Below, piece after piece: positions 12,944-21,419 of a stretch of DNA of 34,067 bases (its first letter is position 1; each line of letters begins with the position of its first letter). The position numbers and the translations under genes were made by a program. Under the pieces are notes generated by a model. The model was not told the DNA's origin, searched no databases, and saw only the letters and a program-made list of their open reading frames with translations. Origin of the DNA: an uncultured Lachnospiraceae bacterium (GTDB taxonomy: Bacteria; Bacillota; Clostridia; Lachnospirales; Lachnospiraceae). The stretch lies in assembly GCA_902803305.1 (NCBI GenBank), contig CADCPL010000146.1, forward strand, positions 1 through 34,067. The letters run 5' to 3'.

Positions 12944-13678
12944 ATGACAATATACGTTGCCATATGCGATAACAATATAGCCGATCGAAAGCAGACCGAA
13001 CGCCTCCTTGAACGTGAAAAAGACAAACGCCTTCATGACAGCGGTGACGTTCTCTATATTGACTCTTTCGGAAGCGAAGAGGCTCTTATGGCCACCCCGA
13101 TAAGGTACGACATCTTCTTTATCGATGTGACCGAGTCGTCGGCTAACGGTATGGATGTTGCAAAACGCCTGCGCCTTAAGGGTATCATCGCTCCGATAGT
13201 ACTGTGCCAGTCTACCGTAAGCTATACATCGTATGTAAATGCTCCCGAAGAGATCATATACATTGAAAAGCCCATATCAGCAGGACAGATCAGTCACCTC
13301 ATAGACGTTGCCGGCGACTGGGTCAAGCGAAAAACACCGCTTGTAGAGATCAGATGCCAGAAGGATACCTGTTTTATCAAATATGATGAGCTTGTACGTG
13401 CCTACCCCATAGACAGTTTCTATACAAGAGTGTGTCTGTCGGAGGGACAGTTCCTGGACATGACCGATTCTATATCTTCTCTTGCAAAACAGTGCGAAAC
13501 CTACGGATGCTTCATCAGATGCCGCAAAGACATTGTGAACATCCTTCATATCGAGGACGCAGTAGATAGCGGTTTCAGACTCACAAACGGAGATACCGTT
13601 CACTATTCATTCTTCCAGAAAAATAACATCATAGAAGTCATGGCATCAAACATGCGAAGGCTGCGCCGCGATCAGTGA
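12944..13678 (+). CDS. Orphan response regulator with a LytTR-type DNA-binding domain
   Basis: Receiver-like N-terminus (YVAICDNN, FFIDV, IEKPI) and a LytTR-like C-terminus (FIRCRKDIVNILHIE). GGAGAA RBS. No kinase is adjacent. The 3' end overlaps the convergent lipase gene by 33 bp. Confidence 0.65.
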   Translation: MTIYVAICDNNIADRKQTERLLEREKDKRLHDSGDVLYIDSFGSEEALMATPIRYDIFFIDVTESSANGMDVAKRLRLKGIIAPIVLCQSTVSYTSYVNAPEEIIYIEKPISAGQISHLIDVAGDWVKRKTPLVEIRCQKDTCFIKYDELVRAYPIDSFYTRVCLSEGQFLDMTDSISSLAKQCETYGCFIRCRKDIVNILHIEDAVDSGFRLTNGDTVHYSFFQKNNIIEVMASNMRRLRRDQ

Positions 13679-14974
13679 TGCAGCATCATTTTCCGCGCTG
13701 CGGTAACAATCAATGATCCCGTCCGTCCTGGCCGACAGATCATCAAGTCTTACCGCGATCCTCTCAAGATCCTCACCTATCCTGCAAAGCGCCTTATCCG
13801 CGAACATCTGTGTGGATATCGTACACGCCATATCGGTTCTTACACTTTCAATACCCGCTTTAACCCTACGCAAACCTGCGATCTGGTCTCTCATCGTCCG
13901 CGCGGCAGCGCTTACGCCTCCGCCATCGAAATAAACGCTGTTTGAAAGAAGCGGCATTTCATCTGTTGCGACAGAGCATGCTGCCGCGATATGTTCGGCC
14001 AGTTTTGCGCATATGTGTCCCATGGTCGGCGCGATACATCCCTCAAGAAGCCGGTCCTGCGGAGTTGTAAGCGCAAGAGATATGGCACTTCCCGCTATGC
14101 GGGACATATCTTCCTTACCTCGACGCGTCAAAGGATCAAGTCCGCTGCACAATACTTCCGTAAGCCGTTCAAGCGCAATCGATACTGCCCCCTGCCCTCT
14201 TGTTGTTATAAAATCACCGTTTTCGTCAAATTCGTTGCATGTAAGCAGTGTTACCGAGGAATGCGCAGCCGCCGCCGAAGGATCGTTGGCCACATAGATT
14301 GCCGTACCGGCTATGGACGCAAGAAGTATGTTCACAAAATCATTGTATGCACTTATCGAAAGTATCTTCGGCGAAGCTATGGCTACCTCGTCTTTGTTCT
14401 GCGTCCTGAACTCATCTCCGAACCCCTGACCGTCATAGGATACACATTCCTTTATCCTCTCGCCCTGTTTGACCGTCACATACATCGCCATGTTTCCGCC
14501 CTTGGAATGACCGGTCACAACGATATCCCTGTATTTTCCGCATTCCAGTTCAACAAAATCATTTGCCGTCTGCTGTATATCGGTGTCAGAACAGAATGCT
14601 CCCTCAAAGTTGTCGGTCCATGCATCCTCCGTCCCGCCGGTCCCGCGAAACACTATCACGGGATCCTCATCCTTGGGATCGGTGTAGCAAAGCGCCCTTA
14701 CATTGTTTTCATCAAGCTTCCTGCTGACCGATATTTCTCCGAAATTCGGATTTTCTTTGATCCTTTTATCCATTTCGGAAAAAACGATGCAGACGTCGTC
14801 CAGGCTCATGCCGCCACCGGCGGCCGCCGGATATACGCTCTCATTCGTAAATCCTCCGGACGGATCCCTGAAAGAATCGATTATCTCTCCTATCGGCCTG
14901 TCGGACAGACATGCCGGTATATATGCAAAATTAGAAAGCAGCAGCAATTCCTGCTGAGTATATGCTCCGTCCAT
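13646..14974 (-). CDS. Mbeg1-like/DUF2974 alpha/beta-hydrolase (lipase class 3-like) with a C-terminal WXG100/LXG-like helical domain; candidate T7SS effector
   Basis: Nucleophile elbow VTGHSKGGNMA, with downstream YNDF and AAHSS as candidate Asp and His. The last ~95 aa are helical and end in CYRSAENDAAS, which mirrors EYRQAEEESS of the adjacent WXG100 protein. The ATG at 14972-14974 overlaps the upstream stop (TGATG); the track start at 14977 is a GTG. Confidence 0.7.
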   Translation of the reverse strand: MDGAYTQQELLLLSNFAYIPACLSDRPIGEIIDSFRDPSGGFTNESVYPAAAGGGMSLDDVCIVFSEMDKRIKENPNFGEISVSRKLDENNVRALCYTDPKDEDPVIVFRGTGGTEDAWTDNFEGAFCSDTDIQQTANDFVELECGKYRDIVVTGHSKGGNMAMYVTVKQGERIKECVSYDGQGFGDEFRTQNKDEVAIASPKILSISAYNDFVNILLASIAGTAIYVANDPSAAAAHSSVTLLTCNEFDENGDFITTRGQGAVSIALERLTEVLCSGLDPLTRRGKEDMSRIAGSAISLALTTPQDRLLEGCIAPTMGHICAKLAEHIAAACSVATDEMPLLSNSVYFDGGGVSAAARTMRDQIAGLRRVKAGIESVRTDMACTISTQMFADKALCRIGEDLERIAVRLDDLSARTDGIIDCYRSAENDAASLIAAQPSHV

Positions 14975-20700: not shown

Positions 20701-21419
20701 GTCCTGACAGATATCCCCGGACTTTTCCCCCTGTTCCAAAGGATAAGAGCATCCACGCCGTCTTTAAAATAACCATCGACCGGCGGGTGTACTGCTTTAA
20801 GGGATACAAGAAGCTGCCTGATCTTTTTTCTGATACAGTCCTCACACTCATCAAGATATGCACTGTATGTGGTCCTGCGCCTCTTTTCTTCGGTCTTCTG
20901 TTTGCTTATCCTCCCGAGAACATTCGCACCGGCCCAAACAGCTGCAAAAACGGATGACAGTATGGCCACGGATCTTCCCGCGCCCAGAAGTATCGGTATC
21001 GCCATCGTAAGTGCGGGGCCGGCCGCGAGCATTACGGATGGCTTCTCCGGGACCTTTCTCTGAGGCGGGCCCTCGATCTCAACAGGTTCCGTATCCGGTA
21101 CCGGCAGCGTGGCCTGACATTTCACGAAAGACCGGTCGCAGGTCTCGGTATATCCCAACCAGACGATACAATGACATCCGATCGTTATGACATCACCCGC
21201 TCTAATAAGACAGGTGCAGCCCTTTTCTTTTTTTTCGCTCCCGACATGTGCCCCGTTCGTACCCAGGATCCGAACGGCAGCGACGTCAGTTCTTACGGTC
21301 GAAAAGATCAAATGCTTTCTGGATACGTAACGATCATCAAGCACCAGATCGCTCGCGGGGTCCCTTCCGACCAAAAAAGGAGACTTCTTCCCCGAAACGT
21401 ATAAAACGCCCATTATCAT
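17733..21419 (-). CDS. essC: EssC/YukB-like T7SS FtsK/SpoIIIE-family ATPase (one FHA domain, 2 TM helices, three P-loop domains)
   Basis: FHA: LVGRDPASDLVL...SRKHL...TNGAHV. TM helices at about aa 130-170. D1: GTTGSGKSE with VIVDEF. D2: GRSGSGKSE with ILALDNY. D3: degenerate AGKQYCGRHT with AIVDNE. At 1228 aa it is shorter than the roughly 1500-aa EssC/YukB proteins I recall. The real start may be the second ATG at 21413. Confidence 0.88.
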   Translation of the reverse strand: MIMGVLYVSGKKSPFLVGRDPASDLVLDDRYVSRKHLIFSTVRTDVAAVRILGTNGAHVGSEKKEKGCTCLIRAGDVITIGCHCIVWLGYTETCDRSFVKCQATLPVPDTEPVEIEGPPQRKVPEKPSVMLAAGPALTMAIPILLGAGRSVAILSSVFAAVWAGANVLGRISKQKTEEKRRRTTYSAYLDECEDCIRKKIRQLLVSLKAVHPPVDGYFKDGVDALILWNRGKSPGISVRTGVGKVDNPIKIIIPKDRFAQVDDSLRGLPALIRKKYEKIDHAPVMTDLIEGRITGMILRSDRDRKILSAVMLQMACAYSPGDLRIRISMCHELMHYYMWTTLLPHYMVGSTSEPGKTIFITDDVQTAYEHVSDSGVILIKQDQTDFPAAVMHFINGKGEKHISFDTVAPELAFSYAASLSRLWGHGGDEAAIPDSAPFGRLFGGRLDVLTSYRKNDITAAFAAPLGIGAGGKKVILDLHEKAAGPHGLIAGTTGSGKSELLTTLILSFAAEFPSDKLAFFLIDYKGGGMSNLFKDLPHVLGSISNLSRSESRRAMISLRSENIRRQKLFAEAGVNNINDYTRLYDSGKVDKPLPHVLVIVDEFAELKKEEPEFMDRLISISQVGRSLGIHLILATQKPSGVVDDKIRSNTAFRMALRLVDTSDSMDMLGRADAAKLDRCGRAFLQIGNSDECRQFQSGYAMCPAACDAEIRIYTDLLLGEEYDMESSPKEPISDPETWYDLALAEIIRADREFVTKRCDRLWLPMLPDVIEDETAVAVFDDPYEQRYERIGADIRQMGHIWICGRSGSGKSELLYTLLDRICGEASIYIVDFGGGRLKDFEERASCGGYITDDRPDEVIRMTGFICEHLARRRKNRNIAANPIILALDNYSDIAAASDQRFSDHLMRIMTMGKSVGIYICAASVSAPASSIGKLVDTGFYMGSESSYIVADFLGCRPGDVPYIRDTPGRGISRLDDKTLEFQAVKTAGTEGKPPPDVAAVRYPHIPEKPELEDLLRDADMKQGIPVGYELCSGKIFYIPPRGIRCVLIAGKQYCGRHTLLFNISITASRYGFDCFEADTYEQLRSIPSGCGRKKIITIESMTHLLDDFYKERRTSEEEKELASFFENPMSKQKAGDDENMTVAIVDNETAMKHGGRKIYDQITKRVFGISFGGCLDENRIFDFSYLPYTKMQMSQKRGIATILRYDEKLFFGDVICPELINVDNSRSP

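Follow-up and report, generated by a model that had tools for sequence, protein, structure and literature searches.

How few components a type VII secretion system (T7SS) can manage with is the question raised by an operon on a 34,067-nt stretch of DNA (hereafter the window) from an uncultured Lachnospiraceae bacterium. In Firmicutes, the identity of the T7SS channel former and of the accessory membrane proteins that are truly needed is still debated. A first-pass annotation had described the operon as a stripped-down version of T7SSb, the type represented by Staphylococcus aureus Ess and Bacillus subtilis Yuk/Yue, lacking EssA/YueC, EssB/YukC and EsaA/YueB. Our answer, which we consider likely, is that the operon constitutes a complete, lineage-conserved, streamlined T7SS module of rumen and gut Lachnospiraceae that is distinct from T7SSb and never had EssA, EssB or EsaA. 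This reading builds on gene content, homologies, conserved motifs and conserved synteny. The module consists of eight open reading frames (ORFs), all on the minus strand and spanning 21419..13646, which are given here in the order of transcription.

17733..21419, minus strand: EssC-like membrane ATPase, 1228 aa; Pfam FtsK_SpoIIIE E=2e-39, FHA E=2e-8.
17477..17713, minus strand: YukD/EsaB-like ubiquitin-fold protein, 78 aa; hhalign match to YukD proteins.
17206..17496, minus strand: WXG100-like paralogue A (WXG-A), 96 aa; WDG at 43, YMENE at 83; weak WXG100 match, E=0.077.
16904..17209, minus strand: WXG100-like paralogue B (WXG-B), 101 aa; WRG at 49, C-terminal IVYKAE; WXG100 E=0.025, TIGR03930 E=0.002, below cut-off.
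16559..16846, minus strand: WXG100 protein C (WXG-C), 95 aa; WEG at 43, YDMAE at 83; Pfam WXG100 1.9e-8, TIGR03930 47.0 bits (cut-off 44.85 bits).
16245..16559, minus strand: WXG100 protein D (WXG-D), 104 aa; WQG at 44, YRQAE at 84; Pfam WXG100 1.1e-15, TIGR03930 61.2 bits.
14974..16248 (TTG start) or 16242 (ATG start), minus strand: protein with a von Willebrand factor A-like domain, a transmembrane (TM) helix and an FHA domain (vWA-TM-FHA protein), 424 aa; FHA E=3.8e-19.
13646..14977 (GTG start) or 14974 (ATG start), minus strand: hydrolase and candidate reverse-oriented T7SS cargo, 443 aa; Pfam Mbeg1-like/DUF2974 (PF11187) E=5e-15.

The eight ORFs are intact and mostly translationally coupled, with junctions, from EssC to the hydrolase, of +19, -20, -4, +57, -1, +2 (or -4) and -1 (or -4) nt; the set +19/-20/-4/+57/-1/+2/-1 uses the start codons picked by gene callers in near-identical contigs, and the alternative TTG start of the vWA-TM-FHA gene at 16248 has GGAGG 6 nt upstream. 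The eight same-strand genes and the junctions reported by the first-pass annotation agree exactly with these ORF coordinates, and its identification of all eight products holds. Its description of the ATPase as a triple P-loop protein has to be qualified, since two of the Walker A motifs are canonical and one is degenerate.

EssC is an FtsK-family membrane ATPase; among solved structures, B. subtilis YukB comes closest to it (9qks, E=6e-87), and it scores 526 bits against TIGR03928, the NCBI EssC equivalog, below the cut-off of 778. Two TM helices lie at about 129-172, and the Walker A motifs of the first two ATPase domains are canonical (GTTGSGKS at 491 in D1 and GRSGSGKS at 804 in D2). Its single N-terminal FHA domain retains the phosphothreonine-binding residues (GR19, S33xxH36, N55G56), and the protein is shorter than the EssCs of Bacilli and most Clostridia by ~100 N-terminal residues, corresponding to the first FHA domain. 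A conjugative FtsK/TraB-like identity was rejected on account of the WXG100 and YukD genes. The YukD-like protein gives a weak match as a single sequence; once its positional orthologues are included in an alignment, hhalign pairs it with YukD proteins at 98.6% probability (E=6.8e-16), and it also matches the ubiquitin-like (UBL) domains of ubiquilin at E=3e-6. It carries no C-terminal Gly-Gly, and its ORF is the top, though weak, match in the window of a hidden Markov model (HMM) of Clostridial YukD. All four WXG100 paralogues contain a WxG motif, followed by a C-terminal YxxxE in WXG-A, WXG-C and WXG-D and by IVYxAE in WXG-B. These features are kept gene position by gene position across related loci, so that the tandem WXG pairs and YxxxE motifs noted earlier are real. 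WXG-C and WXG-D are probably the two halves of a core EsxA/EsxB-like pair, and WXG-A and WXG-B are candidate Lap-like targeting partners.

Are the membrane proteins of T7SSb indeed missing? HMMs of YukC, YueB and EssA were built from genes of recovered Bacilli loci; the YukC and EssA models were validated against Pfam (7e-117 and 1.9e-25, respectively), and YueB, which has no Pfam match, was identified by position and size. In the six-frame translation of the window, the top match of the YukC HMM has E=4.3, those for YueB and EssA return noise only, and no window ORF has a Pfam YukC match; the earlier claim that no EssB, EsaA or EssA occurs anywhere in the 34 kb is thus confirmed. Among 80 EssC loci, the three profiles match only the 12 non-Clostridial ones (Bacilli and Breznakia), where the genes are always adjacent to essC, and there are no matches within 10 kb on either side of ~60 Clostridial EssC loci. 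These distributions bear on the alternative that the operon is only part of a machine, with genes for EssB/YukC, EssA, EsaA/YueB or further core membrane proteins lying elsewhere in the genome and working in trans. Such an arrangement would be in keeping with the scattering known for some T7SS substrates and accessory genes, and both FHA domains of the module keep their phosphothreonine-binding residues while no kinase or phosphatase is encoded here, so that some partners must lie elsewhere. We nevertheless regard it as improbable, given the zero matches in Clostridial loci, the adjacency to essC in the others, the tight coupling of a module that stays together when its chromosomal context changes, and the existence of T7SSc genomes without any T7SSa or T7SSb orthologues (PMC11217815). 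Moreover, eight variants without T7SSa- or T7SSb-specific membrane proteins, T7SSc-j, have been described by Garrett, Higginson and Palmer in 2024, many of them with FHA, kinase or phosphatase parts and some with reverse lipases at the locus (PMC11217815). The lack of EssA, EssB and EsaA is therefore far less surprising than the first-pass annotation held.

The view that the module is complete is supported by its conservation. Its nearest species-representative genomes are rumen or ruminant-gut Lachnospiraceae metagenome-assembled genomes with EssC identities of 49-53%. The identical eight genes occur in the same order in loci L001, L002, L004 and L084, as well as in L081 and L082, whose contigs are 99.5% identical to the window, and all six lie in a DJ-1 / DUF1294-argG neighbourhood. 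At ~30% EssC identity, L003, L006, L007 and L011 start with EssC and a small protein, continue with the WXG genes (four wherever all are called) and end with vWA-TM-FHA and hydrolase. The same order is found in L085, on a 634-kb scaffold with a different genomic context, with one extra lipoprotein gene before the hydrolase. The cluster thus appears as a native one without EssA, EssB and EsaA rather than as a remnant, the same gene order recurring in many independent genomes. When the neighbourhoods of the closest EssC homologues were compared, as had been proposed, EssB was consistently absent; the vWA-TM-FHA gene co-occurs with EssC in the closest loci and is missing from seven others. Nor do the closest homologues lie in complete T7SSb loci, L001, L002, L004 and L084 all sharing the eight genes. 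As a side observation, the DUF1294-argG flank is found immediately or one gene past the hydrolase in L001-L004, L006 and L007, and a few genes further downstream in L005; its retention although EssC identity is only ~30% in some of these loci suggests long vertical inheritance at one chromosomal site.

Comparison with more distant loci indicates where the module comes from. In a distance tree of 72 EssCs, the window protein groups with the hydrolase-linked loci, inside a Clostridial assemblage that is separate from the Bacilli T7SSb clade. Fuller relatives within this assemblage typically encode, in order, a TM-FHA protein, an EssC of ~1660 aa, a LytTR protein, a ~240-aa uncharacterised conserved protein, YukD, several WXG proteins, a vWA-TM-FHA protein of ~520 aa with a signal peptide, a PP2C phosphatase, a Ser/Thr kinase, and LXG-like and DUF4176 proteins. 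An HMM of the ~240-aa protein finds no match in the window. Because EssC falls within the Clostridial assemblage and a 244-aa product encoded next to the operon (described below) belongs to the LytTR family of these loci, the module is, as judged from its sequences, a streamlined descendant of a phospho-regulated Clostridial T7SS and not a cut-down T7SSb. The T7SSb label is likewise at odds with the position of EssC in the tree, its one phosphothreonine-competent FHA domain and its score below the EssC equivalog cut-off.

Descent from a fuller system invites the suspicion that the cluster no longer functions and is the decaying remnant of a Clostridial T7SS that was once larger, of the kinase/PP2C/TM-FHA/LytTR type. 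Several parts of the fuller relatives have gone: the kinase, PP2C, TM-FHA and ~240-aa conserved proteins are not encoded, EssC is without its first FHA domain, and the vWA protein is without its signal peptide and flanking beta-domains. The D3 Walker A and MIDAS (metal-ion-dependent adhesion site) motifs are also degenerate. Against decay stand the intact, translationally coupled ORFs, the age and spread of the reduced form (EssC identities as low as 30% and over 100 sequence clusters), the invariance of catalytic, FHA, WxG and YxxxE residues, and a conserved promoter-like block upstream. At 90% identity, public metagenomes yield more than 100 clusters for the vWA-TM-FHA family and more than 100 for the hydrolase family, the named ones being annotated as Lachnospiraceae; with their invariant catalytic, FHA and YxxxE residues, both families are, on sequence grounds, under purifying selection. 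On account of this conservation we reject the remnant reading as extremely improbable and retain that of a complete, streamlined module.

How does this module compare with the systems already described? It resembles T7SSb in having an EssC/YukB homologue, a free-standing YukD/EsaB-like protein, WXG100 substrates and toxin-type cargo at the locus. It differs from T7SSb in having four WXG paralogues with YxxxE instead of one EsxA, no EssB/YukC, EsaA/YueB or EssA/YueC, and an EssC that lies on a separate tree branch below the NCBI equivalog cut-off; whereas T7SSb EssC has two FHA domains without phosphothreonine-binding residues (PMC11217815), the window EssC has one with these residues intact. 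By the published component lists, the composition of the window matches none of T7SSc-j, the closest being T7SSi and T7SSf. T7SSi of Vallitalea shares with the window its Lachnospirales host, an EssC with an N-terminal FHA domain (TsiC), a YukD-like protein (TsiB), a CheY-like + LytTR protein (TsiN) and the lack of EssA, EssB and EsaA, and its WXG100 genes are likewise clustered with candidate substrates (PMC11217815). The order EssC, LytTR, unknown protein (~240 aa), YukD in the fuller relatives of the module is noted alongside T7SSi; an EspG-like (TsiG) fold was considered for the ~240-aa protein, and its profile gave no EspG matches among solved structures, so that the link to T7SSi stays partial. 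In the window itself, no ORF is a candidate for the EspG-like TsiG or for TsiM, a kinase/ParA-like protein with a C-terminal TM segment. Unlike T7SSi, the window has, in addition, a fixed reverse lipase and a vWA-TM-FHA protein, and it keeps the phosphothreonine motif of the EssC FHA domain, which is reported to be poorly conserved in TsiC (PMC11217815). T7SSf and T7SSj of Clostridium share the FHA-bearing EssC, the YukD-like protein and the WXG100 proteins, and the layout of TsfJ and TsjJ (N-domain, TM, linker, FHA) is the overall layout of the 424-aa window protein (PMC11217815). TsfJ has a DUF6382 N-domain and two TM helices; the window protein has a vWA N-domain, one TM helix and no DUF6382 match at E<=10. 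The window lacks the PPM phosphatase (TsfF) and AAA+/TadZ-like TsfV of T7SSf, a kinase, and the large Ig-like TsjI of T7SSj. No relevant paper on T7SS in Lachnospiraceae was found in the literature, and the supplements of Garrett et al., which are bare accession lists, name no Lachnospiraceae, Oribacterium, Lachnoanaerobaculum, Butyrivibrio or Vallitalea.

An unusual component is the vWA-TM-FHA protein, which the first-pass annotation had put forward as the membrane partner of EssC. Pfam detects its FHA domain only, and the isolated N-domain gives no match at E<=10, VWA and DUF6382 included. The vWA assignment therefore derives from homologues and fold: the L085 homologue, whose N-domain matches Pfam VWA at 6.6e-11, shares 34% identity with it from end to end (E=7e-70), and Foldseek searches with the AlphaFold model of the N-domain retrieve, at E values of about 1e-5 to 1e-6, the vWA domains of ITIH1, alpha2delta-1, Rpn10 and the anthrax receptor. 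In the window clade, the MIDAS motif (DxSxS...T...D) is changed to DxDxT. The C-terminal FHA domain keeps Gly-Arg, Ser-x-x-His and Asn-Gly and matches GarA and FhaA in Foldseek (E about 1e-8). Hydropathy indicates one hydrophobic helix; it is followed by RKRRRDER, which by the positive-inside rule makes the FHA domain cytoplasmic and leaves the vWA part, 253 residues with a net charge of -40, outside. Residues D14/D16, T311/T325 and those of the FHA domain are invariant in the family alignment, T311 and T325 being threonines in a TxxL context between the TM helix and the FHA domain. The short forms of the reduced clade (422-455 aa) all start at the first vWA strand and none has a signal peptide, in contrast to the long forms, which all have one. 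C6 and C100, on neighbouring predicted vWA beta-strands, are invariant in 35/35 short-form proteins and could form a disulfide or a metal site, which bears on the extracellular placement of the vWA domain. Two known systems offer partial parallels. The vWA protein TscE of T7SSc is likewise genetically tied to a T7SS with phospho-signalling parts (PMC11217815); it is a soluble cytoplasmic protein without an FHA domain in a system with an FHA-less EssC, while in the window vWA and FHA are fused across a membrane helix. ArnA/ArnB of Sulfolobus, a phospho-regulated FHA-vWA pair, is among the fold matches of the window protein.

Could this protein be an obligatory structural partner of EssC and a functional replacement of EssB, its FHA domain and phosphothreonines locking onto the FHA domain of EssC? 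In the window clade and in L003, L006, L007, L011 and L085, its gene always comes after the last of the WXG genes, long-form homologues occur in many fuller Clostridial T7SS loci, the protein is strongly conserved, including the invariant TxxL threonines and FHA residues, and, like EssB, it combines a single membrane pass with a cytoplasmic protein-binding domain. However, L005, L008, L012, L013, L020, L026 and L043 encode EssC, WXG proteins and the hydrolase with no vWA-TM-FHA gene within 10 kb; in these loci the WXG genes number four or five where all are called, a recognisable YukD-like gene occurs in L005 and L013 only, and the flanks scanned in L005 and L008 are housekeeping (SbcCD, DAP dehydrogenase, rubrerythrin, peptidases). 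For such co-occurrence counts of the vWA-TM-FHA protein and the hydrolase, full-length clusters only were used; the HMM matches for vWA-FHA in 51 loci and for the hydrolase in 53 reflect shared FHA or WXG-like segments and were not taken as orthologues. The obligatory role further conflicts with two findings: the topology predicted for the protein comes with no signal peptide, and the FHA motif of EssC does not co-vary with the presence of the gene. For the latter reason, a direct obligatory FHA-phosphothreonine lock gains no support. We consider the obligatory partnership possible but doubtful. Since seven related loci lack the gene and the EssC motif does not co-vary with it, the vWA-TM-FHA protein is probably an accessory adaptor or regulator and not an obligatory membrane partner.

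The last gene of the operon points to what the module may export. The hydrolase also matches PF26363 (Phospholipase-like), and a Ser-Asp-His triad is predicted in its N-domain (GHS157KGG, D212, H238) that is invariant in the family. The AlphaFold model (mean predicted local distance difference test score, pLDDT, 85) has five long C-terminal helices (263-433); Foldseek ranks a class-3-lipase-type protein, Aspergillus feruloyl esterase A, best and places a type VI secretion system (T6SS) lipase effector among the top matches. Residues 342-434 give a profile match to 4lws (E=5.5e-4; PDB molecule name 'Uncharacterized protein'), which we take to be a WXG100 Esx protein of Thermomonospora curvata, and a weak match to S. 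aureus EsxA. Together with the invariant Y424xxxE428, sequence and model mark the predicted C-terminal domain as WXG100/LXG-like. The closest counterparts are TslA (Tsl1) and TslM (Tsl2) of S. aureus, which also combine an N-terminal fungal/class-3-lipase-like Ser-Asp-His domain with a C-terminal helical WXG/LXG-like targeting domain (PMC10730906, PMC13560087). The likeness is one of layout and catalytic spacing (S164/D224/H251 in TslA, S157/D212/H238 in the window protein), and small helical WXG-like partners are encoded alongside in both cases. In contrast to TslA and TslM, the window hydrolase has no adjacent gene for an immunity lipoprotein (TilA), a membrane protein (TilM) or a DUF1433 protein, it is the last gene of the core operon and not polymorphic, and it belongs to Pfam DUF2974/Mbeg1-like.

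Whether the hydrolase serves interbacterial antagonism bears on the function of the whole module. A gene for a lipobox (LLGGC) protein of ~240 aa lies directly upstream of the hydrolase gene in L020, L025, L026, L043 and L085 (e.g., L085:9292-10008). By analogy with TilA, its product is a candidate immunity lipoprotein, and its presence would fit a lipase toxin attacking membranes from outside the cell. The window clade has no such lipoprotein gene, which leaves room for a non-toxin role. The hydrolase might be a conserved 'housekeeping' exoenzyme, for instance a feruloyl esterase or an esterase of plant lipids, or else an effector directed at the host; the T7SS would then be its dedicated exporter. 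Consistent with this are a gene that is single, non-polymorphic, vertically inherited and fixed at the operon end, the lack of an immunity-like gene in the window clade, the top fold match to Aspergillus feruloyl esterase A, and the induction of NF-kB in host cells by the Gemella DUF2974 protein Mbeg1 (PMC6867899). The lipoprotein gene of the relatives is, on the other hand, what would be expected for immunity to a lipase acting from outside, T6SS Rhs effectors can contain DUF2974 domains (PMC11854122), the top fold matches include a T6SS lipase toxin, and both known reverse T7SS lipases, TslA and TslM, are antibacterial (PMC10730906, PMC13560087). We assign the exoenzyme or host-effector role a substantial but minority probability.

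Expression of the module is probably under the control of a neighbouring gene that converges on the hydrolase gene.

12944..13678, plus strand: LytTR-type regulator, 244 aa; LytTR-family HMM E=1.8e-6, weak receiver matches.

The HMM was built from the LytTR proteins encoded after EssC in related loci, a family that matches Pfam LytTR at 2.4e-22; the N-terminal half of the 244-aa protein is receiver-like and atypical. The gene is present in L001, L002, L081, L082 and L084 and was not found in L004. Its product is a probable TsiN-like regulator of the module. The hydrolase and LytTR-type genes overlap by 33 nt at their 3′ ends (13646..13678), as they do in L081 and L084, an arrangement through which antisense or transcriptional-interference control would be possible. 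In L003, L005, L006 and L007, the gene convergent to the hydrolase gene, at the position of the LytTR gene in the window, encodes a DUF5721 protein (175 aa, Pfam 2e-45); such a gene also occurs in L085 (18122-18655).

These components can be assembled into a mechanism. EssC, as the sole polytopic membrane protein, would oligomerise to provide both motor and channel, and the YukD-like protein may dock on it as an assembly factor in the way that YukD docks on YukB of B. subtilis. The core heterodimer, of the EsxA/EsxB kind, would be made up of WXG-C and WXG-D, whose YxxxE tails at the C-terminus would engage the ATPase domains of EssC. The hydrolase would be the cargo, a putative Ser-Asp-His lipase/esterase targeted, as proposed by analogy with TslA and TslM, by its C-terminal WXG100-like hairpin with YxxxE and probably escorted by the divergent WXG-A and WXG-B. 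The vWA-TM-FHA protein would act as a single-pass accessory adaptor or regulator that couples to the machine in a phosphorylation-dependent manner, a role to which three features point: the FHA domain on its cytoplasmic side, the two TxxL threonines that are invariant in it, and an EssC FHA domain competent for phosphothreonine. This coupling may have been inherited from the fuller relatives, which encode their own Ser/Thr kinase and PP2C, with the kinase being encoded elsewhere in the window organism, and the convergent LytTR regulator would control expression. In its boldest form, the proposal is that the EssC oligomer, the YukD-like protein and the WXG100 partners are the whole translocon across a monoderm envelope, tuned by an optional vWA-TM-FHA adaptor, whose large acidic vWA ectodomain is exported without a signal peptide, and dedicated to one C-terminally targeted lipase; this we advance only tentatively. 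If it is true, the seven-gene relatives without the vWA-TM-FHA gene would be the smallest self-sufficient T7SS known.

Several points weigh against the reading of a complete module working in this way. The Walker A motif of the D3 domain of EssC is degenerate (GKQYCGRH at 1050). The Pfam and NCBIfam WXG100 cut-offs are passed by WXG-C and WXG-D only, WXG-A and WXG-B remaining below them, and the pairing of the latter two with the hydrolase is a guess. The 424-aa protein has no signal peptide although charge puts its vWA part outside, and across loci the phosphothreonine-competent EssC FHA motif (GR..SxxH..NG) shows no co-variation with a vWA-TM-FHA or TM-FHA gene within 10 kb (counts 7/10/18/25). 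HMMs for a Ser/Thr kinase and a PP2C phosphatase find no match in the window; HMM searches of the window likewise reveal no homologue of the lipobox lipoprotein and no immunity-like gene, and none occurs in the window clade. The view of the genome is limited to 34 kb, and it is we who infer secretion, lipase activity, the substrate and every protein contact.

If the reading holds, a widely conserved seven- or eight-gene module with EssC as its sole polytopic protein would offer a compact system for reconstitution and structure determination. It would extend the diversity of T7SSc-j to the Lachnospiraceae, a dominant rumen and gut family, add a third candidate family of 'reverse' lipase cargo and bring to light an unusual vWA-TM-FHA adaptor. 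Should the lipase be antibacterial or host-active, the module would matter to competition in the rumen and gut and to the turnover of lipids there.

The region upstream of essC contains the conserved promoter-like block referred to above.

21508..21536, minus strand: promoter-like element, read from the sequence; TTGCAC, 17-nt spacer, TGnTATCAT.

The element is followed by a conserved leader of ~80 nt with a small hairpin (GCGAT-AGTTC-ATCGC) at 21473..21459, in which L084 has a compensatory change (GCGAA..TTCGC). The non-coding block 21459..21550 (minus strand) is nearly invariant in five genomes whose EssC proteins are only ~50% identical. Rfam holds no family for it, and consensus scans of the window for sigma-70 promoters and terminators, which did not rise above background, missed the block.

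Beyond the module and the LytTR gene, the remaining sizeable ORFs of the window are housekeeping by Pfam (arginine biosynthesis, Lon, ClpX, ClpP, trigger factor, a two-component system, HtrA and others), GC content is uniform across the window, and tRNA and Rfam scans of the window found no tRNA genes or Rfam RNAs. The module sits inside an arginine-biosynthesis neighbourhood, with argD, argB, argJ, a GNAT gene and argG on one side (7303..12621) and argC on the other (23215..24165). Just upstream of essC, a 171-aa Big_2 ORF (21592..22107, minus strand) is the leftover of an internal deletion of ~2.5 kb with its junction near 21873; at the same position, L081 and L082 have a gene for a 1046-aa surface protein with a transglutaminase core and Big_2 domains.

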